A model generated the notes under the pieces. The model did no database searches and was not told the DNA's origin. It saw only the letters and a program-made list of their open reading frames with translations. The translations under genes were made by a program, and so were the position numbers. From NCBI GenBank assembly GCA_025361885.1, contig JANYJF010000008.1, positions 99,263 through 163,262 of the forward strand: a stretch of 64,000 nucleotides of DNA. Direction: 5' to 3'. Origin of the DNA: Coriobacteriia bacterium (GTDB lineage: Bacteria > Actinomycetota > Coriobacteriia > Anaerosomatales > PALSA-660). This document shows, in pieces, positions 3,288 to 56,980 of this stretch (positions are counted from its first letter, which is position 1; the number at the start of each line of letters is the position of its first letter).

Positions 3288-4379
3288 TCAGGCGTTGGAC
3301 GATCGCGGCGCGTCATCGGCGAGAGCGAGCGAGGCGGCGATGCGTGCGGTCACATCCTGCCGGACCGCCTGCGCTGCTACCCGCAGCGCCGACGCCACCG
3401 CGCGCGGACCCGAGGACCCGTGTCCGATGAGGATCAAGCCCTTCAGCCCGAGCAGCGGAGCGGCGCCGAGCTCATCAGGATCCAGCCGCTCCACCAGGCC
3501 TTTGAGCCTGGGCCTGAGCACGGCCGACGCCAGTCTGGTCGCCGCAGTCGCCGTCATCGCATCCCGGACCTGGCCAAGCAGGCTCTTGGACAAGCCCTCC
3601 ATGAGCTTGAGCGCGACGTTGCCGGTGAAGCCGTCGGTCACGATGACGTCCGCGCCTCCGGTCGGGATGTCCCGGCCTTCGACGTTGCCGGTGAAGCCGG
3701 GGACTGACGCGGCCATCAGCATGTGCGCCTCCTGCGCCAGCAGCGAACCCTTTGTGGGCTCCTCGCCGATGTTGAGCAGCGCAACGCGCGGCTGATCGAT
3801 ACCGAGCGCCGCCTGCGCGTAGGCGCGACCCATCAGGGCGAACTGCACGAGGTGTTCGGGCTTGCAGTCGGCGTTGGCGCCCACGTCGAGCATCACGCAC
3901 GGATCGCTGGTGGTGGGGAGCGCGGTGGCGATCGCCGGGCGCATGACGCCGGGCAACCGACCAGTCACGAGGGTGCCGCCCGCCATCATCGCGCCGGTGT
4001 TGCCGGCGGAGAAGAACGCATCGGCCTCGCCGTCGCGTACCAGCCGGCAGCCGACCACGATCGAGGACTCCTTCTTGCTTCGAACGGCGCTTGCGCCGTG
4101 CTCGTCCATACCGATGGAGTCCTCGGCCACGATCGCCTCGACATGCGTGTGCGCCGCCGCGAAGGCCTCGACCACGGAGGCCGGGCCGATGAGTACGACG
4201 ATGAGCCCCGGGTCGGCGGACAGAGCGGTGGTCACGCCTTCGAGCACGGCTGCGGGAGCGAAGTCGCCCCCTACGGCGTCAACGGCTATACGGGTCGGGG
4301 GTCGCGGCACGTCCACGCATCCTTCCGGGAGCGGTTCCAAACGGGTCCCACGTGAGTCGGACCGCTCGCGGGCGATCAC
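3288..4379 (-). CDS. plsX: phosphate acyltransferase PlsX
   Basis: RIAVDAVGGDFAP and FTGNVALK motifs. GTG 4379 overlaps the upstream stop (GTGA). Exact start uncertain. Confidence 0.85.
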   Translation of the reverse strand: MIARERSDSRGTRLEPLPEGCVDVPRPPTRIAVDAVGGDFAPAAVLEGVTTALSADPGLIVVLIGPASVVEAFAAAHTHVEAIVAEDSIGMDEHGASAVRSKKESSIVVGCRLVRDGEADAFFSAGNTGAMMAGGTLVTGRLPGVMRPAIATALPTTSDPCVMLDVGANADCKPEHLVQFALMGRAYAQAALGIDQPRVALLNIGEEPTKGSLLAQEAHMLMAASVPGFTGNVEGRDIPTGGADVIVTDGFTGNVALKLMEGLSKSLLGQVRDAMTATAATRLASAVLRPRLKGLVERLDPDELGAAPLLGLKGLILIGHGSSGPRAVASALRVAAQAVRQDVTARIAASLALADDAPRSSNA

Positions 4380-5446
4380 AGTCCGAAGGCTGCCAGCAGG
4401 TCGTCGACGGACACGCCAGCGACGAACATCTCGCGTATCTTATCAGCCTTGCCGCGGCCATGGAGGCGCACCTGGCCCATGATGCCCTCGAGCTTCTCGA
4501 CGGCCGTCAGAGTGTCCATGTCCACGAGCACCATCGGCACGCCCAGTTCGTCCGCCCGTGCCAGCACGAGTGACGACGGCGGCATGTTGCCCGTGAGCAC
4601 TATCGCCGAGGTGGACGTCTCGAGCGCCGCCAACTGCACGTCAGCACGATCGCCACCGGTCACGACCGCCTTGTGCGCCCTGCGACGGAAGAACCGCAGC
4701 GCCTTCTCCTGGCCCATCGCTCCGATCATGAACGACTCCACGGGCTCGTCGAGGTGGTCCTCGGCGCACAACACGGTGCCTCCCAGCTCCTCCACAAGCT
4801 CCGCAACGGTTATGGACCCGAGTGTCGGGTCGTCGGCGAGCATCCCGAAGTAGGCGATCTTGCGGCTCGCGTAGAACGGCACCACGTGATCGATGATCGA
4901 CGCGGCGCGGGCTTCATGGATCCGGTTGAGGACCACGCCGCCGAGCCGTTCGCCGAGGCAGTCCGCGGCTCCCAGCACCGAGTCGGGGATCTCCAGATGC
5001 TCGGGATGGTCGACCATCAGGACACGCGCGTCGAGCATGTCAGCCACGGCGCACAGGTGAACGCCGGCGGCCATCCCCTGGAAGACGTCGGACGGGCCCT
5101 CCACCACCATCACGTCGCGTCCCTTCGACACGATCTCGAACGCCTCGCGCACGCGCTCGGCAGGGGCGGGCTCGCGACCCAGCAGGACTTCCTCGATGAA
5201 GCGCTCGCTTCGCACGATCGCGCACACCGAGCCGACTGGTCCGGGCGTGGGAAGGGTCGAGTTGATGTAGTAGGCGTCCCTGTCGGTGAGCACGTCGCCG
5301 GCGCGGTACGGCATCGTGCCGTAGGGCTTGAAATAGCCTGCGTCGAGGCCGCGCTCTCGCAGCTCCCCGAGCAGCGCCACACAGATGCCTGTCTTGCCGG
5401 CGTACCGCGTGGTCGACGCGACGATGATCGTGAGCATGGCGCTCAT
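4376..5446 (-). CDS. Pta-N-terminal-like protein (P-loop-like domain + DRTGG domain, no PTA catalytic domain)
   Basis: Start ATG 5446 overlaps the ACD stop (ATGA). STTRYAGKTGI P-loop-like N-domain and VVTGGDRADV DRTGG-type segment. Ends without a phosphotransacetylase catalytic domain. Confidence 0.7.
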   Translation of the reverse strand: MSAMLTIIVASTTRYAGKTGICVALLGELRERGLDAGYFKPYGTMPYRAGDVLTDRDAYYINSTLPTPGPVGSVCAIVRSERFIEEVLLGREPAPAERVREAFEIVSKGRDVMVVEGPSDVFQGMAAGVHLCAVADMLDARVLMVDHPEHLEIPDSVLGAADCLGERLGGVVLNRIHEARAASIIDHVVPFYASRKIAYFGMLADDPTLGSITVAELVEELGGTVLCAEDHLDEPVESFMIGAMGQEKALRFFRRRAHKAVVTGGDRADVQLAALETSTSAIVLTGNMPPSSLVLARADELGVPMVLVDMDTLTAVEKLEGIMGQVRLHGRGKADKIREMFVAGVSVDDLLAAFGL

Positions 5447-25587: not shown

Positions 25588-25687
25588 GTCTCGTATCTGG
25601 TCGGGTGTGTCGGCACCACGGCGGAGCCATCAGCAAGTCGGATGCCGCGCACCATTCTACACGGCCGACGGTCCGGCCGACGGTCCC

Positions 25688-28153
25688 CTACATCAGGTCG
25701 AGAGGATCGATGTCGGGGGCCACGGACACACCCTCCCGCGCACCGACGGCGTTCACGGCCTCGAGCACGACCGATGAGAGCGCCGCGCCGGCCGGCGCTT
25801 TCAGCAGAACATGCCATCGATACTGTTCCTTGACCCGGGCCAGCACGGACGGGCTGGGACCCAGGACGCTCCAAGCCGGGGGGACGAGTCCGGACAGTGA
25901 CGTAGCCAGCCGGGCGGCGGTATCGCGGACGTCCGCGGAGTCCCTGCCTGCGACGTTGATGTTCGCGAGCCGGCCGAACGGTGGGTAGCCCAAAGACTCC
26001 CGCTCGATCCTCTCCGGACCGTAGAAGACGCCGGCGTCCCCTGTGGCGGCCGCTCGGATCGCGGGGTGGTCCGGCCAGTACGTCTGGATCACGACCGTGC
26101 CCGCGCGCTCACCTCGGCCCGCGCGACCGGCAACCTGCGCCAGCAGCTCGAACGTCCTCTCGCCCGCACGGAAGTCCGGCATGTGCAGCGTCGTGTCGGC
26201 GTTGATGACGCCGACGAGCGTGACCTCCGGGTAGTCGAGCCCCTTCGCGACCATCTGCGTGCCGAGGAGCACGCCGGACTGAAGCGTCTCGAACGCCGCG
26301 AGTGCACGCTCGTGACCTCCCTTGCCGGCGGTGGTGTCGGCATCCATCCGCACCACTCTCAGGTCCGGGAAGGCCGCTGCGAGCTCCGCCTCCACTCGCT
26401 GCGTGCCGGCGCCGAACTGACGAAGGAAGGGACTGGCGCATACGGGGCACAGCGCTGGGAGGACCTCGACGTGTCCGCAGTGATGACACGCGAGCCTCGA
26501 GCCCTTCTCGTGGAACGTGAGCGACACGGAGCACCGTGGGCACGACGGCACGTGGCCGCACTCGCGACACAGCACGAACGACGCGAAGCCACGGCGGTTG
26601 AGGAAGAGAACGGCCTTGTCGTGGCGCGCCTCGACGTCACCGAGTGCAGCGAGCAGGGGCCTCGAGAACATCGACCTGTGACCGTCCGCGAACTCCTTCG
26701 CCATGTCCACGACAGTCACCGGGGGCATGACGCCGCCGCCGACCCGCTCAGGCAGCAGGACCCTCCGATACCGGCCCTCGCCGACGGCCACCCGCGATTC
26801 GAACGACGGCGTCGCGCTGCCGAGGACGAGGACCGCGCCGGTCTCCGCGCACAGCCTCTCAGCCGCCTCACGGGCGTGATATCGCGGGGCCGAGCCCTGC
26901 TTGTACGAGGACTCATGTTCCTCGTCGATCACGACGAGCCTGAGGTCCCGGACAGGGGCGAAGAGCGCGGATCTCGGACCGATCGCGACCCGGGCATCAC
27001 CTCGCGACGCGAGCGACCACTGGTCGAAGCGCTCCCCCGCCGAAAGCCGGGAGTGCAGCACTGCGACCTGGCGACCGAACCGCGTCCTGAATCGCCCGAC
27101 GGTCTGCGGCGTCAGCGAGATCTCGGGGACCAGCACGATGGCGCCACCGCCATCTGCAAGGACGCGCTCGATCGCCCGCAGGTAGACCTCGGTCTTGCCA
27201 CTCCCGGTGACGCCCTCCAGCAGTACGACGTCACCGGGCTTGGCGGAGGCGATTGCTTCGAGCGAATCCCGTTGCCCCCTCGACAGGCGTTCGTGACGCG
27301 GCGCTGGTCGCGCACCCGACGACGGATCCCGCCATCGGCGCCGGGAGGTCACTGTGACGAGGCCTTTGCCCTCGAGCCGCTCGACCGCGGAAGAGACGCT
27401 CCCGAGGCGAGCGCCGAGTTCACCGACCGTGACGGGTCCGCTCTTCAACGCATCCATGACTGCCCGCGCGAGTGTCGCGTTGGGTCGCAGCGCCGACGTC
27501 TCGGCGCCGGGTGCGAGCTCGACGAGTCTCTCCTCGACGGCAGAGACTTGCGGTCGTCGCAGCTCGTAGACGCGTTCGACCGCGCCCAAGCCCACGAGCC
27601 GCGAGACGTCTGAGGCGGTCGAGCGCCCGAAACGCGTCTGTAGAGCGTGCGTGCGCTCCTCGCCCGCGGCGATGGCGTCGAACACGTCGCCGGCACGGCC
27701 CCGCGACGGTCGCTTGGTGGCGTCGGCGATCCTGACTCGCGTGGCCACGGACGGCGTGCCGCCGGGCGGCAGGAACAGCCGAAGCGCGTCGGGAACGGTT
27801 GAGACGTACTCCTCCGCGATCCAGCGAGCGACCCGCACCGAGACGTCAGTGAACAGCGGCTCGCCAAGGACCGCCAGCGGCTCCTTGAGCTCGGGCACGT
27901 CGCTGGTCTCGGCCATCTCGGCCACGTAAGCCACGACCGTCTGTGGCCCGAACGGGACCAACAGCGGGGTTCCTACGGATATGGAGCCCGCCATCGCGTC
28001 GGGCACGGCGTAGTCGAACACGGAGTCGAGACTCCGTGTCGAGATGTCCACGATGACCCGCGCGACCGGCACGTCCCAGCGCTCCTTCGATGTCGGCTGC
28101 CGCGGGTCCCTCGCCCACGCGGCCTTCGCCAGCATAGACCAGGCCGCCGACAT
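25688..28153 (-). CDS. priA: primosomal protein N' (replication restart helicase PriA)
   Basis: LEGVTGSGKTEVY Walker A, DEEHE box and a Cys-rich zinc insert (CRECGHVPSCPRCSVSLTFH...CHHCG). Start may be a few codons internal. Confidence 0.88.
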   Translation of the reverse strand: MSAAWSMLAKAAWARDPRQPTSKERWDVPVARVIVDISTRSLDSVFDYAVPDAMAGSISVGTPLLVPFGPQTVVAYVAEMAETSDVPELKEPLAVLGEPLFTDVSVRVARWIAEEYVSTVPDALRLFLPPGGTPSVATRVRIADATKRPSRGRAGDVFDAIAAGEERTHALQTRFGRSTASDVSRLVGLGAVERVYELRRPQVSAVEERLVELAPGAETSALRPNATLARAVMDALKSGPVTVGELGARLGSVSSAVERLEGKGLVTVTSRRRWRDPSSGARPAPRHERLSRGQRDSLEAIASAKPGDVVLLEGVTGSGKTEVYLRAIERVLADGGGAIVLVPEISLTPQTVGRFRTRFGRQVAVLHSRLSAGERFDQWSLASRGDARVAIGPRSALFAPVRDLRLVVIDEEHESSYKQGSAPRYHAREAAERLCAETGAVLVLGSATPSFESRVAVGEGRYRRVLLPERVGGGVMPPVTVVDMAKEFADGHRSMFSRPLLAALGDVEARHDKAVLFLNRRGFASFVLCRECGHVPSCPRCSVSLTFHEKGSRLACHHCGHVEVLPALCPVCASPFLRQFGAGTQRVEAELAAAFPDLRVVRMDADTTAGKGGHERALAAFETLQSGVLLGTQMVAKGLDYPEVTLVGVINADTTLHMPDFRAGERTFELLAQVAGRAGRGERAGTVVIQTYWPDHPAIRAAATGDAGVFYGPERIERESLGYPPFGRLANINVAGRDSADVRDTAARLATSLSGLVPPAWSVLGPSPSVLARVKEQYRWHVLLKAPAGAALSSVVLEAVNAVGAREGVSVAPDIDPLDLM

Positions 28154-31468: not shown

Positions 31469-31542
31469 TGGGGCGTAGTCTAATGGTAGGACGGCGGGTT
31501 CTGGTCCCGTGTGTGAGGGTTCGACTCCTTCCGCCCCAGCCA
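31469..31542 (+). tRNA. tRNA-Gln (anticodon CUG), CCA encoded
   Basis: Cloverleaf folded by hand: acceptor UGGGGCG/CGCCCCA, anticodon arm GCGGG-UUCUGGU-CCCGU, T-loop GGUUCGACU. Confidence 0.9.
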
Positions 31543-31571: not shown

Positions 31572-31647
31572 GGCCCGTTCGTCTAGCGGTTAGGACACCG
31601 CCCTCTCAAGGCGGAGATCACGGGTTCGAATCCCGTACGGGCTACCA
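31572..31647 (+). tRNA. tRNA-Glu (anticodon CUC), CCA encoded
   Basis: Acceptor GGCCCGU/ACGGGCU, anticodon arm CCGCC-CUCUCAA-GGCGG, T-loop GGUUCGAAU. Confidence 0.9.
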
Positions 31648-31771: not shown

Positions 31772-32158
31772 TGGGAGCGGGCCAGACGGCCGCGCGGACG
31801 GGCACCTGTGCACGGACGTGAGGAAAGTCGGGGCTCCGCAGGGCAGGGTGCAGGCTAACGGCCTGGCGTCGCGAGGCGACGGAAAGTGCCACAGAAAAGA
31901 AAACTCCGCCGATACCGCTGCTGCCCGCTCACGCGGGAAGTGGCCCGTCGGCGGAAAAGCTGAAACGGTGCGGTAAGAGCGCACCAGCGTCATGGTGACA
32001 TGGCGGCTTGGCAAACCCCACCCGGAGCAAGGGCGAATAGGAGCGATCAAGGCCGGCCCGGCCGCCGCTCGGGTACGCCCGCTTGAGACCGCCGGTAACG
32101 GCGGCCCTAGATAGATGGTCGTTCACGACAAGACCCCGCTTATCGGCCCGCTCCCACT
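31772..32158 (+). ncRNA. rnpB: RNase P RNA, bacterial type A
   Basis: GAGGAAAGUCGGGGCUCC (P4), CCACAGAAAAG, GGUAAGAGCGCACC, GGCAAACCCCACC, CUAGAUAGAUGG and ACAAGACCCCGCUUAUCGG. Terminal helix GGGAGCGGGCC/GGCCCGCUCCC. Confidence 0.9.
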
Positions 32159-39707: not shown

Positions 39708-42700
39708 TCACACGGTCGCGCTCGCGTCTTCCCACGACTCCTCCTCCGGCGCGCCCGCACCGGGTCGCTGCGGCCCCATCGACCCGAGCCCGACGCCACG
39801 CCGCAGCCGCACGGGCTCGCCCACGTCGGTGCGCACCACGTACGGCGACACCTTGTCCGCGATGATCGCGAGGCCACGCTCCGGGTTGTTCTGCAGGATG
39901 CCTTCGACCAGGTAGCAGCGATGGCGGACGATCGTCTCCCCCGCCCGCATGAGCGCGTCGGAGAACACGACGACGTCGAGCAGTCCCGTGGCATCCTCCA
40001 GCGTCAGGAAGCAGGTCCGCTTGCCGGACTTCGTCGGCGGCGTCTGCGCGCGCTCGCGCACGCCGACGACCCGCACGCGCATGCGGTCCGGCAACCGCGC
40101 CAGATCGCGGGCCAGCATCACCCGCCGTGCGTCGAGGTCCTTCGCGCACAGTTCGAGCGGATGACAGGTGATCGCCAGGCCCATGAGCTCCAGCTCGGCG
40201 CCCAGCCGTCTGGCCGGCGACCATCCCGACACGTGTCCCGTCGCGTCGCGCGCGCGGGCCCGCGCCGGCGCCAGCGCCAACGTCCGGTCTCCCGCCACCC
40301 CTTCCTTCGCGATAACAGCCTTGATCTCCGGCAGCAGCACGAGCATCTCGTCGCGCGTGGGCGGACGGGCGGCCTCGGTGGTGCCGAGCCCGTCGAGGGC
40401 GCCGACCCGGATCAGGCTGGCCACCGCGTCCACTTCGCCGCGCGTGCGCCGAAGCAGGTCCGCGAGGTCCTCGAAGGGCCGGACGGCCCTCTCCTTCTCG
40501 ATGCGTGCGAGCAGCCGGACGTTCATGTTCAGCAGCCCCTTGAGGCCCACGCGGATAGCGGCTCCATCCTTCTCCACCGTGCAGTCCGCGCCCGACGCGT
40601 TGACGTGCGGCGGCAGGATCGCGATGCCGTGATGCCGTGCGTCGTCGAGCACGAGGCGCGGCGAATAGAACCCCATCGGCTCGTTGTTGACGATGGCGGC
40701 GGCGAACTCGGCCGGGTAGTGGACCTTGAGCCACCCGCTCGCGTAACTGACCACGGCGAAGCATGCCGCGTGAGCCTTGTTGAAGCCGTACGCCGCGAAG
40801 CCCTGCAGCTGGCGGAACACCTCCTCAGCTACTTCGTGCGACGAGCCGAGCGCGCACGCCCTCTCCACAAAGCCCGCGTGCAGCTTCTCCATCTCCGCGC
40901 GGGAGCGGCCCTTGGTCATCGCACGGCGCAGCGAGTCGGCTTCGGCCAGGGTGAAGCCCGCTACCGCTTTGGCCACCTGCAACACCTGCTCCTGGTAGAC
41001 GATGACACCGTAGGTGTCGCGTAGCACGTGACCCATGCCGGGGTGCGGCACGACCACCGGCTCCATGCCATGCCTTCGCCTGATGAACGGGACGATCATC
41101 TCGGCCTCGAGCGGACCGGGCCGGAACAGCGAGATCGCCGCGATGATGTCGGTGAAGCGCGACGCCCGCAGGCGCGTGTTGAGGTTGCGCTGCCCGGAGC
41201 TCTCCAGCTGGAACATCCCGACCGTGTCCGCGGCGGCGATGGCGGCGTAGACGGCCGGGTCGTCGTGCGGCAGCTCGAACGGCTCGGGCACCGCGTCCTC
41301 CCCGACACGCGCCCTCGCCATCTCCACGGTCTCGGATATCGCTGAATGGATGCGAAGGCCCAAGATGTCCATCTTGACCAGTCCGAGCGCCTCGACGTCG
41401 TCCTTGTCGTACTGCGCGACGACCACGCCCTTGGCCGCCCACTGCAGCGGCGCCCACGTGTCGACCGGCTCGCGGGTTATCAGGAAGCCGCCGAGGTGCG
41501 TGCCGAGGTGCATCGGCGTGTGGTCGAGCTGCTCGGCGATCTCCAGGAGAAGCTCGTGCCCCGGCTCCTTCAAGGGATGGTGCTCGCACTCCGGATAGGT
41601 GGTCAGCACGTCTCGTATCTTGCGCGCGGAGACCCACGGCAGGTGGCGCGACAGCGCGTTGACCTCCTCCGGAGCATGTCCGAGCGCCTTGGCTGCCGTG
41701 CGCACCGCGCTCTTGGCAGTCATGGTGTTGACCGTTGCGATCATGGCCACGTGCTCGCTGCCGAACCGCTTGTAGATGAAGTCGATGACCTCGTCTCTGC
41801 GCGCGGAGTCGAAGTCCACGTCGATGTCGGGCATCTGGCGGCGGGCCGGGTTGAGGAACCGCTCGAAGAGCAGGTCGTGTTCGACGGGGTCGGCGTCGGT
41901 GATGCCCAGGACGTAGGTCACGATGCTGTCCCCGGCGCTGCCGCGGCCCGAGCAGCGGATGCCCCGCCCCTTCGCGAAGGTGACGATCTCCCGCACCGTC
42001 AGGAAGTACTCGGAGAAGCCGAGCTCCTCGATGACACCGAGTTCGTACTGCATGCGCCGCAGCGCCTCGGGGGTGACGGGACGGTAGCGCTCCTCGAGTC
42101 CACGCCACGCGAGTCCGGCGAGTGTCGAGTACGGCGTCTCGCCGCTTGGGACCTCGATGCTGGGGAAATGGAACGCTCCCAGACCGAGGTCCAGGTTGCA
42201 GCGCTCCGCTATCTCGAGAGTGGCGTCGCACGCGCCGGGGAGATTGGCGAACAGGCGACGCATCTCGGTGGCGGTCTTGAACGACAGCTCCGCGTTGGAC
42301 CGCAGCAGCGGTCCGGGGAGCGCTTCCCGCGCCCCGACCGAGGACAGCACGTCATGGATGCGGTGCTGCTCCCGCTCGACGTAGTGGATGTCGTTCGTGG
42401 CCACAAGCGGCACCCCGAGGCTCTCCGCGAGACCGGCCAGGCCTGCGATCAGGCGGGTCGAGTCCGCCGTGAGCTCGTGGACGGCCTCGATGTAGAAGTC
42501 GCCGGGCGAGAAGCAGGCCGCGAGCCGCCTCGCGGCCTCGCGGGCGCGCCACGGCTGGCCGGCTGCGACCGACGCCGCCACCTCGCCCCTCCCGCATCCC
42601 GACAGTCCGATGAGCCCTTCGCTACACCGTGCGAGGTCGCGCAGCAAGACCACCGAGCGTGCGGACCCCTCACCGTCCTCCGACTCCCGACGCAGGTGCG

Positions 42701-43079
42701 CGGCCGACAGCAGCCGGCACAGGTTGCGGTAGCCGTGGATGTCCCGCGCGAGCAGCGTGAGGTGGAATCCGGACGCCGACGCCCGCCCGAAGCCGCTCGG
42801 ATACGGCGCCATCAGCCGATCAGTGGGCGGCAGGTCGCACTCGGGCTCCGCGATCCCGCACGTCTCGACGACCACCTCCGCCCCGATGATCGGCTTGATG
42901 CCCGCCGCGATCGCCTTCTGGTAGAAGCGGATGGCGCCGTACAACCCTTGGTGGTCCGTGAGGGCGAGCGCAGGCATCCCGCATCGCTTCGCCTTGGCGA
43001 TCAGTCCGTCGAGCGACGACGCGCCGTCCATGAAGCTGAACGACGAGTGGACATGGAGATGGACGAACGAACCCGCCAC
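39708..43079 (-). CDS. dnaE2: error-prone DNA polymerase DnaE2 (Pol III alpha C-family)
   Basis: PHP N-terminus FVHLHVHSSFSFMDGASS is the DnaE2-type HxHSxFSF(L/M)DGAS signature. Lies downstream of a LexA box. Preferred start is GTG 43079, 8 nt after GGGGG and 17 nt after the upstream stop; the ORF extends to 43328. Confidence 0.85.
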   Translation of the reverse strand: MAGSFVHLHVHSSFSFMDGASSLDGLIAKAKRCGMPALALTDHQGLYGAIRFYQKAIAAGIKPIIGAEVVVETCGIAEPECDLPPTDRLMAPYPSGFGRASASGFHLTLLARDIHGYRNLCRLLSAAHLRRESEDGEGSARSVVLLRDLARCSEGLIGLSGCGRGEVAASVAAGQPWRAREAARRLAACFSPGDFYIEAVHELTADSTRLIAGLAGLAESLGVPLVATNDIHYVEREQHRIHDVLSSVGAREALPGPLLRSNAELSFKTATEMRRLFANLPGACDATLEIAERCNLDLGLGAFHFPSIEVPSGETPYSTLAGLAWRGLEERYRPVTPEALRRMQYELGVIEELGFSEYFLTVREIVTFAKGRGIRCSGRGSAGDSIVTYVLGITDADPVEHDLLFERFLNPARRQMPDIDVDFDSARRDEVIDFIYKRFGSEHVAMIATVNTMTAKSAVRTAAKALGHAPEEVNALSRHLPWVSARKIRDVLTTYPECEHHPLKEPGHELLLEIAEQLDHTPMHLGTHLGGFLITREPVDTWAPLQWAAKGVVVAQYDKDDVEALGLVKMDILGLRIHSAISETVEMARARVGEDAVPEPFELPHDDPAVYAAIAAADTVGMFQLESSGQRNLNTRLRASRFTDIIAAISLFRPGPLEAEMIVPFIRRRHGMEPVVVPHPGMGHVLRDTYGVIVYQEQVLQVAKAVAGFTLAEADSLRRAMTKGRSRAEMEKLHAGFVERACALGSSHEVAEEVFRQLQGFAAYGFNKAHAACFAVVSYASGWLKVHYPAEFAAAIVNNEPMGFYSPRLVLDDARHHGIAILPPHVNASGADCTVEKDGAAIRVGLKGLLNMNVRLLARIEKERAVRPFEDLADLLRRTRGEVDAVASLIRVGALDGLGTTEAARPPTRDEMLVLLPEIKAVIAKEGVAGDRTLALAPARARARDATGHVSGWSPARRLGAELELMGLAITCHPLELCAKDLDARRVMLARDLARLPDRMRVRVVGVRERAQTPPTKSGKRTCFLTLEDATGLLDVVVFSDALMRAGETIVRHRCYLVEGILQNNPERGLAIIADKVSPYVVRTDVGEPVRLRRGVGLGSMGPQRPGAGAPEEESWEDASATV

Positions 43080-43095
43080 GAGGTCAGCCCCCGCG

Positions 43096-43506
43096 CTAGT
43101 CCGCGATCCCGGTGAGCAACCACGTTCCGCCCAGCCGGTCGTACGCCAGATCGAACGTGCCTCCGCCTGCGAGTACGCGAAAGCAGCGGCGCGAGACATG
43201 TCGCGCACGGTCCCACCATGCCCGCTCCACCGTCCACTGTTGGACGACGGCCTCGACCAGGTACGTCCGTCCGCCATGGACGAACCCCAACGGCCGTCCC
43301 GAGTCGCCGTCCCACTCCACCGGCACAATGATCTCCGCGCGCTTGCCGGCGGAGGCGCCCGACGGCAGCTCCGAGGCGCGGCGCACCCATGGCGTGCCGA
43401 GCAGCTCGGCTATCACCGGGCGACGGCTCTGGACGGTGTCGAACAGCGTGATCGGCTGGCCGTCGGGGTGCGCGTCGAACCGTTTGATGGCGGCGTTGTG
43501 GCCCAT
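43096..43506 (-). CDS. small SOS-cassette protein (136 aa), C-terminal WW-containing domain resembling DUF6504
   Basis: Very strong GC3 bias. ATG 43506 is the only start downstream of the predicted TSS. C-terminus reads GFVHGGRTYLVEAVVQQWTVERAWWD...RRCFRVLAGGGTFDLAYDRLGGTWLLTGIAD. The family assignment is from memory only. Confidence 0.65.
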   Translation of the reverse strand: MGHNAAIKRFDAHPDGQPITLFDTVQSRRPVIAELLGTPWVRRASELPSGASAGKRAEIIVPVEWDGDSGRPLGFVHGGRTYLVEAVVQQWTVERAWWDRARHVSRRCFRVLAGGGTFDLAYDRLGGTWLLTGIAD

Positions 43507-43671: not shown

Positions 43672-44328
43672 CTACTGAGCGTCGTCAGGATGCACGATCA
43701 CACGCGACGCAAGCTCGCGTCCGAGAGCGTGCGGCGAACCTGCGACTGCCACGAGCATGGCCCCGTCCATGGGCGCGATCTCAAGGATGTCCACGTGCGC
43801 ACCTGGGAACAGTCGCAGGGACGCAAGATGCGCGAGCAGCGTCTCATCGTCCTCGGCCACGCTCAGGATCGACGCCCCTGCTCCGGCGGGGACATCCGAC
43901 AGCGGCACGCCCTTGACTGATGCGATCTTCCCGTCCGACGACGGGATCGGGTGCCCGTGCGGACAGACCTCCGGATTGCTCAGGAACTCCTCAAGGGCGC
44001 TTTGGACCCGCGGCGAGAGCGCGTGTTCCAGCTTGCAGGCCTCCTCGTGGACCTCGTCCCACGGCAGTCCCAGGACGTCGACGAGCAGGCGCTCGGCGAG
44101 CCGATGGCGCCTGATGATGCTCAGCGCCTCGAGCCTTCCCTGGCTCGTGAGCGCGACGCCTCCGCCCGGACGCTCGACCAGACCCGCCGCCTCGAGCCTG
44201 CGAAGCGTCGCGGTCACCGTCGGTCCGGAAACCGACAAGGCCTCCGCGAGTTGCGTGGGACGGACCTCGCCGGACTCCGAGATCTTGTAGATCGTCTCCA
44301 GGTACTCTTCCAAGGTCTCGCTCGGCAT
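43672..44328 (-). CDS. DtxR/IdeR-family metal-dependent transcriptional regulator with C-terminal FeoA/SH3-like domain
   Basis: Start ATG 44328 (MPSETLEEYLETIYKISESG). HTH, the metal-site helix HEEACKLEH and a FeoA-like tail. Confidence 0.88.
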   Translation of the reverse strand: MPSETLEEYLETIYKISESGEVRPTQLAEALSVSGPTVTATLRRLEAAGLVERPGGGVALTSQGRLEALSIIRRHRLAERLLVDVLGLPWDEVHEEACKLEHALSPRVQSALEEFLSNPEVCPHGHPIPSSDGKIASVKGVPLSDVPAGAGASILSVAEDDETLLAHLASLRLFPGAHVDILEIAPMDGAMLVAVAGSPHALGRELASRVIVHPDDAQ

Positions 44329-44387
44329 GGCGGCTTCCCGTTGGCTCGGGGACTCGAGGGGATGCGCCGCACGACCGCGGCTCCACG

Positions 44388-44393
44388 AGTATA
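44388..44393 (-). promoter_or_regulatory. candidate -10 (TATACT) of the dtxR-family gene
   Basis: TATACT on the minus strand, about 60 nt upstream of ATG 44328. No convincing -35. Confidence 0.35.
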
Positions 44394-44515
44394 GCGCAGC
44401 GACATGCGCGGTCCGCCCAGCACGGCGACAAGAGGACGGACCCGGTTGGCAGGCCGGACGGCGCCGACAACAGCACACCCCGTCGACCCTCACTGCGAAG
44501 CCGCTCATCCGCCAC

Positions 44516-44548
44516 TTGCGACCTTGCATCGCAATTGCTGGCAATTGC
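44516..44548. promoter_or_regulatory. cluster of palindromes upstream of RNA unit A promoter (possible operator)
   Basis: TTGCGA-N7-TCGCAA (44516-44534), then GCAATTGC at 44531-44538 and again at 44541-44548. Ends 12 nt before the -35. Confidence 0.4.
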
Positions 44549-44559
44549 GGAATCCACCA

Positions 44560-44588
44560 TTGACCGGGCCTCCACAGACCCCTATCGT
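44560..44588 (+). promoter_or_regulatory. promoter of RNA unit A: TTGACC-17 nt-TATCGT
   Basis: -35 at 44560-44565 and -10 at 44583-44588. Same hexamers and spacing as unit B. Confidence 0.55.
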
Positions 44589-44595
44589 CGCACTT

Positions 44596-44767
44596 GTCCC
44601 GAGAAGTCGGACCGAGCGAGACTTGAAAACCGGAGTACCAGTAGCTGCCTCACCGGGCGGTGTGTGAAAGGGTCTAGTCGCGAGACGAGCCTGAGTACCG
44701 CTCCTTCGGAAGGGCGTGAAACGGGAAACCGGTTGCTAGAGTCCACGCAGGCGAGGTCTCTCGGGAC
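44596..44767 (+). ncRNA. unclassified structured RNA, tandem paralog A (172 nt core)
   Basis: Terminal helix GUCCCGAGA/UCUCGGGAC starts 7 nt after the -10. Internal hairpins include a GNRA-capped one (GUC-GCGA-GAC). Compensatory changes relative to unit B. No credible ORF. Confidence 0.6.
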
Positions 44768-44786
44768 ACCTCTTTGTCCCGGATCC

Positions 44787-44811
44787 GATGGGCTCGACTC
44801 CGGGCCCATTC
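44787..44811 (+). terminator. hairpin after RNA unit A (possible weak terminator)
   Basis: AUGGGC-N10-GCCCAU with no U-tract. Confidence 0.3.
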
Positions 44812-44921
44812 GGGGCGTCGGAACCGCTCGCCGCACGCGTTCCGGCTATCCGGCCCAACGCGCCATTCCGCCGCCCAATTCAGCCACTCGCCGCAAGCAT
44901 CAGCAATCTTCGAATCCGCTA

Positions 44922-44950
44922 TTGACCACGCTTCCGGGTACCTCTATCGT
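44922..44950 (+). promoter_or_regulatory. promoter of RNA unit B: TTGACC-17 nt-TATCGT
   Basis: -35 at 44922-44927 and -10 at 44945-44950. Confidence 0.55.
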
Positions 44951-44957
44951 CACAGTC

Positions 44958-45128
44958 GTCCCAAGAAGTCGGACCGAGCGAGACTTGAAAACCAGCGTAC
45001 CAGTAGCTGCCCCTCCGGGGTTCCGCGAAACGGTCAGGTCGCAAGGCAGGCCCTGAGTACCGGGTTCCGGGTGGGTGTGAAACGGGAAGCTGGCGAGTAG
45101 ATCCTCCGCAGGCGAGGTTTCTTGGGAC
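44958..45128 (+). ncRNA. unclassified structured RNA, tandem paralog B (171 nt core)
   Basis: Terminal helix GUCCCAAGAA/UUCUUGGGAC starts 7 nt after the -10. GNRA hairpin GUC-GCAA-GGC. Followed by a strong terminator. Confidence 0.6.
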
Positions 45129-45147
45129 ACTACTTTGTCTCGAGACA

Positions 45148-45189
45148 GGAGCGGGGCCCCGGCGGGGCCCCGCTCCTTCGCATTTTCAG
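45148..45189. terminator. GC-rich hairpin terminator (ends RNA unit B on plus; also lies just downstream of queD on minus)
   Basis: GGAGCGGGGCCCC-GGC-GGGGCCCCGCUCC followed on the plus strand by UUCGCAUUUUC. Confidence 0.6.
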
Positions 45190-45209
45190 ACAGGATCCCG
45201 GGCGTTCGC

Positions 45210-45575
45210 CTAGGGCCGATAGACCAATCGCGCGACCGGCGACTCCCACACAGCCACCTCACGGACGCGCACCTGCTCCCCCACGGTCTCCACGAGCCGC
45301 TCGAAGATGACACGGGCCAGGTTCTCCGCGGTCGGGGTGATGACGTCGAACGGTGGGACGTCGTTGATCAAGACGTGATCGTAGTTCGTGATGACTGCGG
45401 CAAGGTCGTCCTTCAGCTGCTTGAAGTCGTACACGATCCCGATATCGTCGAGCGTGGCCCCCACAACCGTCACCTCCACATCCCACGTGTGGCCGTGCAG
45501 GTTGCGACACTCGCCGGGATAGTCGCGCAGCGCATGCGCCGCGTCGAAATGGCCCTTCACAGTCAACTCGTACAC
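45210..45575 (-). CDS. queD: 6-carboxy-5,6,7,8-tetrahydropterin synthase
   Basis: YELTVKGHFDAAHALRDYPGECRNLHGHTW (Cx3HGH zinc motif). Start GTG 45575, 8 nt after GGGAG; the ORF extends to 45638. Confidence 0.85.
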   Translation of the reverse strand: MYELTVKGHFDAAHALRDYPGECRNLHGHTWDVEVTVVGATLDDIGIVYDFKQLKDDLAAVITNYDHVLINDVPPFDVITPTAENLARVIFERLVETVGEQVRVREVAVWESPVARLVYRP

Positions 45576-45588
45576 GAGCCAGCTCCCA

Positions 45589-46050
45589 TCAGTCGAACAG
45601 CGCGCCCTGGGTGGCGCCCCAACCGGACCCGACGCCATCGCCGATCTCCGAGCGCGTATCCATCGCTTCGTTCGCCAGCGTGTCCGCCAGTGTGTTGTCC
45701 GAACGCCGGACGTGGCATACCTCGATGCGTTCGAAGCGGCGCAGGAGCGCCGTCACCTTCGCATGTAGCGGCTTCATGTTCGGATGCTTCACCTTGTACA
45801 CGCCGTTGACCTGGCGCACCACGAGCTCCGAGTCGGCACACACCTTGAGCCGGCGCACCCCGTGATCGATCGCCGTCTCCAGTCCCCAGATCAGCGCCTC
45901 GTACTCGGCGACGTTGTTCGTCGTCTCGCCGAGGTATCGGCCGCCGCTGCGGACGACTGAACCATCCCCTGCTTCGATGACGAAGCCGGCAGCTGCCGGC
46001 CCGGGGTTGCCGCGCGCGCCTCCGTCGGTCCTGAGCGTGTAGCCAGCCAT
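45589..46050 (-). CDS. rnhA: ribonuclease HI family protein
   Basis: RTDGGARGNPGPAAAGF..., NNVAEYEALIWGL and DSELVVRQ (DEDD RNase H motifs). Confidence 0.85.
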   Translation of the reverse strand: MAGYTLRTDGGARGNPGPAAAGFVIEAGDGSVVRSGGRYLGETTNNVAEYEALIWGLETAIDHGVRRLKVCADSELVVRQVNGVYKVKHPNMKPLHAKVTALLRRFERIEVCHVRRSDNTLADTLANEAMDTRSEIGDGVGSGWGATQGALFD

Positions 46051-56850: not shown

Positions 56851-56860
56851 GCTTGCTCGA

Positions 56861-56980
56861 CCTTCCTTCTACCATCCGGACTGTAACCGTCGGCCCCGGA
56901 GTCTCACCGGATCTGCGCTTGCGCGCTCGCGGGCTGTCACCGCCGGTGGGGAGTCGCACCCCGCCCTGAAGAAAGCGTCG
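56861..56980 (-). promoter_or_regulatory. FMN riboswitch (RFN element)
   Basis: Minus strand reads CUUCAGGGCGGGGUGCGACUCCCCACCGGCGGUGACAGCCCGCGAGCG...GAUCCGGUGAGACUCCGGGGCCGACGGUUACAGUCCGGAUGGUAGAAGGAAGG. The 3' strand contains the ribD SD. Confidence 0.9.

Follow-up and report, generated by a model that had tools for sequence, protein, structure and literature searches.

Large, highly conserved free-standing bacterial RNAs are few, and each of the solved examples, i.e., RNase P RNA, the signal recognition particle (SRP) RNA, 6S RNA and transfer-messenger RNA (tmRNA), revealed a basic cellular mechanism. No 6S RNA has been recognised in Actinobacteria, where Ms1 and CoRP RNA fill its role in some lineages, and in that literature it is proposed that every species possesses a single abundant RNA that associates with RNA polymerase and may so far have been overlooked (PMC9130861, PMC11077062). 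Tandem 6S genes are reported from the Bacillus cereus group (PMC7726162). Here we analyze a stretch of 64,000 nucleotides from a Coriobacteriia bacterium (contig JANYJF010000008.1, positions 99,263 to 163,262; hereafter the window), in which the gap between a dtxR-family gene and queD holds two tandem plus-strand units, A and B. We put at about 0.95 the probability that these are two genes of an uncatalogued family of free-standing structured RNAs, which we rate as new, its members being of an already known kind, i.e., stable free-standing structured RNAs of bacteria, and which is absent from Rfam 15. Because of the shape of its predicted fold we refer to it as the rod RNA; no description of it was found in the literature searched.

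The units had been pointed out in a preliminary description made from the letters of the window, as two independently promoted paralogs with a period of 362 bp. Both nhmmer and a covariance model (CM), R1, recovered them at 44596-44781 and 44958-45142 on the plus strand and matched nothing else in the window, in the case of R1 even with filters off. The cores measure 172 nt (A) and 171 nt (B) and are 75% identical, and the units can be aligned from promoter through core to tail; the first 36 nt agree at 35 positions, and the blocks GUACCAGUAGCUGCC, GUGAAACGGGAA and CGCAGGCGAGGU are shared unchanged, as had been claimed. There is no credible open reading frame (ORF) in the dtxR-queD gap. The promoter scan of 44300-45300 returned exactly two sigma-70-like sites, i.e., the two identical TTGACC-17-TATCGT promoters already proposed for A and B, where shuffles lead one to expect 0.0, and in both units the G of GUCCC falls 7 nt past the –10. 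The promoters, of sigma-70/sigmaA type, would thus be placed for transcription to start at or beside this G. Taken as single sequences, the units have unremarkable folding energies (z = –1.6 for A and –0.6 for B) that weigh neither for nor against a structure, and the case therefore rests on 62 homologous copies with covariation.

These 62 copies were recovered by pattern, profile and synteny searches. An exact-pattern scan of metagenome contigs yielded 11 loci and a second exact-pattern scan, of one genome per species, 39 loci; a profile search over all fetched sequence found 58 copies, and R1 over fetched sequence found 61. The carriers are almost all metagenome-assembled genomes (MAGs) labelled Coriobacteriia, Anaerosomatales, or Actinomycetota/Actinobacteria bacterium, these labels being those of the MAG depositors, and no copies were matched in viral contigs or plasmids. 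When homologs of the window DtxR (63-69% identity) were fetched by protein, four of four had one RNA copy in the queD-dtxR gap. Across the family 44 positions are invariant, concentrated in the internal loops and in both strands of the outermost helix, P1. In the copies obtained independently of the patterns, ACCAGUAGC and the closing helix are unchanged; the 3' core block varies in some of the six, one of the two profile-only copies included, for example with GGUAAGAAAUGGGAA for GGUGUGAAACGGGAA. The two paralogs of the preliminary description are real and no mere local oddity, being members of a family that numbers at least 62 copies and comprises two groups of paralogs. The alignment of 61 sequences (A4) and R1 would permit annotation of the RNA in MAGs.

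One and the same unbranched rod, with a core of 168-172 nt and 0 branch points, was reached by RNAalifold, mutual information, independent minimum free energy (MFE) folding and inspection by hand. Of 14 members folded by MFE, 12 gave the same rod and two, L002 and L042, deviated in the inner region; RNAalifold on the MAFFT alignments left the variable terminal arm unresolved. The closing stem of about 28 bp (P1, P2a-c and P3), with arms of about 40 nt each, is broken by small conserved internal loops and leads to a central loop of 10-11 nt per strand and a terminal arm of about 75 nt. P1 has 13 bp, i.e., GUCCCRAGARGUY and its partner, of which the last three pairs are G.U, U.G and Y-G. A 3x3 loop separates it from P2a (CC/GG), which is followed by P2b (GCGA/UCGC) and by P2c, which is CCGC/GCGG in the majority of copies and GACUU/GAGUC in A and carries two mismatches in B. 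Beyond a GAAAR/GGAKUA loop stand the 5-bp P3, a nearly invariant core internal loop (5' GUACCAGUAG, 3' GUGAAACGGGAA), P4 (CUGCC/GGYG.G), P5, and finally a variable arm with a GNRA tetraloop cap. The positions of these elements in A and B are collected in the table. P3 is bordered on both strands by GAA elements and by (A)NUA/GUA elements (columns 31-35/147-152 and 43-46/138-140 of alignment A2), which in unit A lie at 44625-44629/44733-44738 and 44635-44637/44725-44727 and are arranged with rough two-fold symmetry. In the terminal arm, GAGUA/GYGNGAAA (44698-44702 in A) belongs to the window sequence type, a subset of the queD-dtxR group.

Covariation carries this model. In the MAFFT alignment of 55 copies, 96.0% of the cells are paired and 16 pairs show double changes (119 cells), with 33-44% paired when the partners are slid; in the CM alignment of 61 copies, 96.0% of cells are likewise paired and 17 of 39 pairs show double changes (149 cells), with 30-49% for slid partners. 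Among 500 shuffles, none attained the covariation score, in either the MAFFT or the CM alignment. P3 covaries at five of five positions, and P2c, P5 and the GNRA stem at several. P1 contains a single variable pair (G-C to A-U), and because 8 of its 13 pairs never vary, it is sequence-constrained there and not proven by covariation. The homologs covary in each of three helices of the preliminary description, i.e., the terminal helix, the long-range helix and the stem of the GNRA hairpin. The exchange of G44601-C44762 in A for A44963-U45123 in B is correct base by base, as are the GNRA hairpins at 44677-44686 and 45038-45047. The long-range helix had been placed correctly in B (44992-44996/45089-45093), but with a slip of 10 in the 5' strand of A, which is 44630-44633 and not 44640-44643. 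The local AAGUC-loop-GACUU hairpin of that description had to be given up as a conserved fold: it is 46% paired, 428 of 500 shuffles score at least as high, and its bases belong instead to the P1 extension and P2c. The apparent covariation of the third GNRA position with column 66 was set aside as probably phylogenetic, since the arm is unbranched.

The fold also bears on whether the RNA might itself sense or catalyze. A trans-acting orphan aptamer or ribozyme would suit the highly conserved loop nucleotides, the T-loop-like GUGAAAC and the GNRA caps, and no known class matches the RNA. We regard this as quite improbable, since known aptamers and ribozymes of about 170 nt are branched, whereas the rod has neither multi-helix junctions nor pseudoknots supported in the model, and no expression platform or downstream gene stands beside it. 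The putative T-loop U is moreover replaced by A or G in pattern-independent copies, and the variants AAGAAAU and GGGAAAC weaken the T-loop reading of GUGAAAC.

Table 1. Features of the dtxR-queD gap and its borders in the window; the two strands of a helix are separated by a slash.
Feature	Position	Strand	Evidence and remarks
DtxR-family metal-dependent regulator gene	43672-44329	-	divergent from A; homologs named DtxR family, Pfam Fe_dep_repress and FeoA
Upstream region of A	44479-44556	+	three degenerate phased CCGTT-like sites, CGCAATTGCTGGCAATTGCG palindrome, AT-richer block
Promoter A, TTGACC-17-TATCGT	44560-44588	+	promoter scan; geometry as in family
RNA unit A core	44596-44767	+	R1, 150.6 bits; MFE fold; covariation-supported model
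Unit A, P1	44596-44608/44755-44767	+	
Unit A, P2a-c	44612-44624/44739-44751	+	
Unit A, P3	44630-44633/44729-44732	+	
Unit A, core loop	44635-44644 and 44716-44727	+	
Unit A, P4	44645-44649/44713-44718	+	
Unit A, terminal arm	44650-44712	+	GCGA loop 44680-44683
Tail of A	44768-44816	+	pyrimidine-rich ACCUCUUUGUCC, then GC hairpin 44776-44816 without clear U tract, likely a terminator
Upstream region of B	44841-44917	+	degenerate phased sites; AT-richer block CAGCAATCTTCGAATCC at 44902-44917
Promoter B, TTGACC-17-TATCGT	44922-44950	+	promoter scan; geometry as in family
RNA unit B core	44958-45128	+	R1, 163.9 bits; MFE folds
Unit B, P1	44958-44970/45116-45128	+	
Unit B, P3	44992-44996/45089-45093	+	
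Unit B, core loop	44997-45006 and 45077-45088	+	
Unit B, P4	45007-45011/45074-45079	+	
Unit B, tetraloop	45041-45044	+	GCAA
Tail of B	45129-45188	+	14-bp GC hairpin 45147-45177 and U-rich UUCGCAUUUUC, likely the intrinsic terminator of B; convergent with queD
queD (PTPS family) gene	45210-45638	-	convergent with B; PF01242 PTPS at same position in L055-L057; true start probably downstream of first ATG of ORF

The pairs of the model hold 391 G.U cells against 36 A.C cells, and R1 scores A at 151 and B at 164 bits in the plus orientation, compared with 6-7 bits in the minus. Taken together with the promoters and terminators, these values settle the plus strand, in agreement with the preliminary description, and remove the idea of a dtxR 5' untranslated region (UTR). 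A cis element, whether a long 5'UTR on the minus strand for the dtxR-family gene or a leader serving some plus-strand gene, could be argued from the position of unit A, which is on the opposite strand and 267 nt upstream of the start codon of dtxR. We find such a reading practically untenable, since the CM bits and the G.U excess speak against it, the promoter and terminator lie on the plus strand in all copies, many copies are far from dtxR, and no plus-strand gene follows B, as had been noted earlier. Over the 62 copies the contexts vary and no downstream gene is conserved; a cis leader and a dtxR 5'UTR are therefore excluded by the unrelated gene contexts. On the sequence evidence the units are independent transcription units, chromosomal and vertically inherited.

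Two groups of copies were distinguished by their loci. Group 1 comprises the copies between queD-rnhA-Zn ribbon-Nif3-PHP and dtxR. In L055-L057 the block PHP-Nif3-Zn ribbon-RNase H-queD-RNA-dtxR is conserved, with feoB after dtxR and with DUF6504 and a DnaE2-type polymerase beyond; the window has dtxR and the DnaE2-type polymerase, without feoB. The gene for this error-prone polymerase lies beyond dtxR at 39708-43328 (-) of the window, and in L055-L057 it is preceded by the DUF6504 gene. The group 1 RNA is transcribed away from dtxR, except for the inverted copy in L054, where the RNA (4167-4351, +) stands 100 nt upstream of dtxR (4453-5103, +) on the same strand and has kept its own hairpin terminator; RNase H and queD were not called in the 1.1-kb gap of that locus. 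Group 2 forms one clade in a neighbour-joining tree and is found mostly downstream of gatA-gatB. Three gatB loci at 71% protein identity are without the RNA and without any Rfam hit (the GatB homologs listed are all at least 71% identical), and the gatB linkage is therefore limited to one clade; orthology with a canonical 6S gene through gatB linkage was also considered, and these loci, holding neither, were uninformative.

Several genomes carry more than one copy. At least two MAGs hold two paralogs, one a queD-dtxR copy and one elsewhere: the JAUVXE01 MAG has both kinds (L055 and L033), and contig MCHG01000001.1 (2,037,191 bp) has L001 after gatB, the L057-type DtxR protein lying likewise on a 2,037,191-bp contig. 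Copies paired in tandem or close together are found in the window and in L008, L011, L013 and L035 (L037 and L049, which come from one contig, have the arrangement of L011). Divergent pairs occur in L022 (627-811, - and 3180-3366, +) and L045 (2854-3038, - and 5406-5591, +), the copies being about 2.4 kb apart with ORFs between. The copy at 3180 in L022 has changes in otherwise invariant bases (GAAUCGGGAC; UCG for UAG) and may be degenerating or specialised. The first copy of L008 matches unit A at 92% identity and the second matches unit B at 97%. Each unit is closer to its L008 counterpart than A is to B, and the tandem duplication therefore predates the split of the two organisms. This distance (92% and 97% against 75%) also speaks against the units being repeated DNA alone, the remains of a mobile element or similar by chance, for which the arrangement of A and B as direct repeats 362 bp apart might be cited; with compensatory changes at 17 helix positions, synteny conserved at two chromosomal loci, no viral or plasmid copies found, and neither a transposase nor a reverse transcriptase nearby, almost no weight is left to it.

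The promoter is shared by the whole family. A TAnnnT hexamer ends 6-7 nt 5' of GUCCC in 58 of 58 copies examined, and TTGnnn is present at 17 nt (16 nt in L023) in 57 of them, the remaining copy being truncated. An AT-rich block, CAtTTccCGaAAt, is found family-wide at about –60 to –40 relative to GUCCC, and beyond it most members have three aCCGTTcrgC repeats starting at –116, –95 and –74, i.e., with 21-bp phasing. An UP element together with activator sites is the layout of strong stable-RNA promoters; the AT-rich, UP-like block and the three phased repeats resemble this layout, and the RNA genes are probably strongly transcribed. In the window the CCGTT sites are degenerate: the position weight matrix (PWM) score of the triple is 15.8 for A (44479-44535) against a family median of 25.7, and the 10.8 of unit B (44841-44896) does not stand out from the window background. 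No other convincing array emerged when the rest of the window was searched with the PWM. In the same kind of scan a tandem GGACCGTCGGCC GGACCGTCGGCC, directly before a TAGAAT hexamer, surfaced at 25650-25706 (-). Between dtxR and A, just 5' of the –35 of A, there is a perfect 9+2+9 palindrome, CGCAATTGCTGGCAATTGCG (20 bp, 44530-44549), which has no equivalent before B and which could be an operator.

At the other end, a strong GC hairpin follows most copies, 12-25 nt after P1 and past a pyrimidine-rich linker, often with a U-rich tail. The hairpin reported after B is present, and its tail UUCGCAUUUUC, described as a run of T, is too interrupted for a simple terminator scan, which returned 0 sites. 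The tails that follow P1 (44768-44781 and 45129-45146), ACACCUCUUUGUCC, resemble the anti-Shine-Dalgarno end of 16S rRNA. Pairing of tail ACCUCU with AGAGGU in the 5' strand of P1 was examined as well and was rejected: it is perfect in many gatB-linked copies, without covariation at the position-10 change.

These tails raise the alternative of a base-pairing small RNA (sRNA), in which the single-stranded, pyrimidine-rich and anti-Shine-Dalgarno-like 3' tail ACACCUCUUU would pair with ribosome-binding sites, perhaps under metal regulation like PrrF1/PrrF2. In all copies the linker from P1 to the terminator is rich in pyrimidines, the genes are in tandem with promoters of their own, and in the queD-dtxR group the RNA is always beside a DtxR-family gene, which feoB follows in L055-L057. 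We nevertheless think this improbable. No part of the transcript is less conserved than the tail, which does not covary with the Shine-Dalgarno-like 5' strand; a seed-based sRNA has no need of a 170-nt core with 44 invariant positions; the gatB-linked paralogs keep the promoter architecture without a metal-regulator neighbour; and no DtxR-type operator lies over the –35 or –10.

Comparison with known families used a copy of Rfam 15 dated September 2026, at gathering thresholds and at E<=10, on the window, the region, the single units, and 53 loci across both scans. Over the window and about 407 kb of loci, no copy matched any family at gathering score, raiA, cobalamin and 6S included, and the copies are therefore not members of 6S, raiA, SRP, Ms1 or cobalamin. 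Together with their own promoters and the lack of a conserved downstream gene, this upholds the original view of free-standing, independently promoted structured RNAs of no known class. At E<=10, searches of the region, seven loci, and units A and B alone gave no 6S or other relevant match; the weak hits were spurious (terminator hairpins to miRNA or Transposase-2 models and, in the region, cobalamin at 10.5 bits, E=4.9). A similarity of GGUCAGGUC-GCAA in unit B to SRP RNA was dismissed, the rest of the family being without it. The gathering hits in the window all lie outside the dtxR-queD gap: two tRNA genes (31469-31539 and 31572-31644, +), followed by a class A RNase P RNA (31774-32158, +; 258.9 bits) about 12 kb from the units, and a flavin mononucleotide (FMN) riboswitch aptamer (56860-56977, -; 110.8 bits).

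As to function, we propose that the RNA would act in trans, as an abundant and stable molecule whose invariant loops and closing helix of fixed sequence would serve to bind a protein. That it is a protein-binding stable RNA seems to us somewhat better than an even chance. Among possible partners we favour RNA polymerase, though at well below an even chance and hardly ahead of some other RNA-binding protein; in that case the rod RNA would correspond in function to 6S, Ms1 or CoRP and sequester or modulate the enzyme, with its paralogs (tandem A and B, or a queD-dtxR copy and a second copy elsewhere) in roles like those of 6S-1 and 6S-2. The traits that recall 6S are the length of 168-172 nt, the placement of loop and stems, the G-C pairs at the central loop, and the paralog pattern. 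Put more broadly, the rod RNA might be the abundant RNA associated with RNA polymerase that is still missing from early-branching, largely uncultured Actinomycetota (Anaerosomatales and related 'Coriobacteriia'). It would add a fourth class to 6S, Ms1 and CoRP, each genome having two specialised paralogs whose synthesis is under the control of an elaborate array of upstream activator sites; we hold this to be possible, though not the outcome to be expected. If the 6S-like reading were true, product RNAs of 14-20 nt would be found, complementary to ...CCGCGAAAGGUAGCGU in the 5' core. A pairing of CCAGUAGC with the 3' strand of P3, as in a 6S-style rearrangement, was tried and discarded, since it forms only where P3 is GUAGC/GCUAC and does not covary.

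Several points weigh against RNA polymerase as the partner. The argument for this function draws on the shape of the RNA, the strength of its promoters, the pattern of its copies and what the literature lacks, and the binding is predicted. With the units searched singly, the Rfam 6S model stayed without a match up to E<=10, and the family offered no conserved counterpart of the alternative helix that product RNA triggers in 6S. The central loop is predicted to be partly paired, the MFE folds joining four positions (CC/GG and GU/AC) whose bases barely vary (only C135 to U, in L056 and L057); with the GUA/GAA loop-E-like elements, it is maybe compact and not an open bubble like the one with which 6S mimics an open promoter. 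The invariant positions, which include both strands of P1, look more like sequence-specific recognition by another protein. In addition, most copies were gathered with exact patterns, so that the invariance of the three blocks is partly by construction, a bias countered by fetching loci also through the DtxR-family protein alone.

The same invariant positions would fit a scaffold, sponge or ribonucleoprotein subunit for an RNA-binding protein other than RNA polymerase, with the conserved internal loops as binding sites, in the manner of Y RNA/Ro, CsrB-type sponges or SRP-like particles. Their clustering in the internal loops and both P1 strands, an unbranched rod with its own strong promoter, and the presence of paralogs within a genome, typical of sponge and Y RNAs, are all consistent with this. 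The symmetry of the GAA/GUA elements around P3, each strand reading GAA...P3...(A)GUA, suggests paired loop-E-like motifs and perhaps a dimeric protein partner, a binder that the two-fold layout would suit. However, no conserved candidate partner gene adjoins the rod RNA, its neighbours being gatA/gatB, dtxR/queD or unrelated; a Ro/TROVE gene (rsr) was not seen among the recurring neighbour clusters or the called genes of L051-L057, not every neighbour having been profiled; and the loop-E call was made by eye, the bulged G being often U or C in the GAAAR/ANUA loop. We consider a partner of this kind possible, with the balance of probability still against it. If the partner is such a protein, the family would define a new ribonucleoprotein.

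Set beside described RNAs, the rod RNA agrees with each in part, although the comparisons place it in none of 6S, Ms1, CoRP, raiA, SRP RNA or Y RNA, nor among the riboswitches. PrrF1/PrrF2 are tandem iron-responsive short base-pairing sRNAs with Fur boxes over their promoters; the units share with them the tandem paralogs, the separate promoters and the vicinity of metal-homeostasis genes, but the rod RNA is long and conserved, has no operator over its promoter, and in half of the family is unlinked to metal genes. Y RNAs likewise have a conserved helix with internal loops, made by pairing of their 5' and 3' ends, stand as several adjacent paralogs, and function by binding protein. Unlike YrlA/YrlB with Ro/Rsr, the rod RNA has no tRNA-like domain and no model match. 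Bacterial SRP RNA (RF00169/RF01854), in which the apical helix 8 with its GNAR tetraloop and its loops is conserved, gave no hit, and the apical arm is the most variable part of the rod RNA. Of the orphan RNAs the raiA motif (ModT; RF03072) comes nearest in spirit: it too is free-standing, measures about 200 nt, contains many invariant bases and an E-loop, is abundant, has a promoter and a terminator to itself, and occurs in Coriobacteriia and other Actinomycetota; it is, however, branched (P1-P8), has two pseudoknots and lies between raiA and comFC (PMC10861870), whereas the rod RNA is unbranched, lies at other loci and gave no hit to the RF03072 covariance model.

There remain the RNA polymerase-associating RNAs. 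Ms1 and CoRP are lineage-specific, structured and abundant, stand in for a recognisable 6S in Actinobacteria (PMC9130861, PMC11077062), and, like the rod RNA, were missed by existing models. Ms1, however, is about 300 nt long and flanked by HAD-IB hydrolase and oxidoreductase genes (PMC9130861), and CoRP of Corynebacterium is 516 nt long and tRNA-flanked (PMC11077062), whereas the rod RNA, of about 170 nt, lies in the queD-dtxR gap or after gatB, no tRNA reached gathering score in the 46 loci scanned, and no sequence relation is shown. From 6S RNA (RF00013), which binds the sigma70/sigmaA holoenzyme and is a template for product RNAs, it differs in the lack of a CM match, in being sequence-conserved where 6S is shape-conserved (PMC11077062), in a central loop that is smaller and maybe structured rather than open, and in that no ygfA neighbour was seen beside it. 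It has in common with 6S a free-standing gene with a sigma-70-type promoter, an unbranched rod (12 of 14 MFE folds) of 168-172 nt compared with about 170-185 nt, a closing stem, a G-C-flanked central loop and a terminal arm, and its tandem genes recall the two paralogs per genome in some lineages of 6S. The rod RNA family is a testable candidate, for one group of lineages, for the predicted undiscovered RNA polymerase-binding RNAs (PMC11077062).

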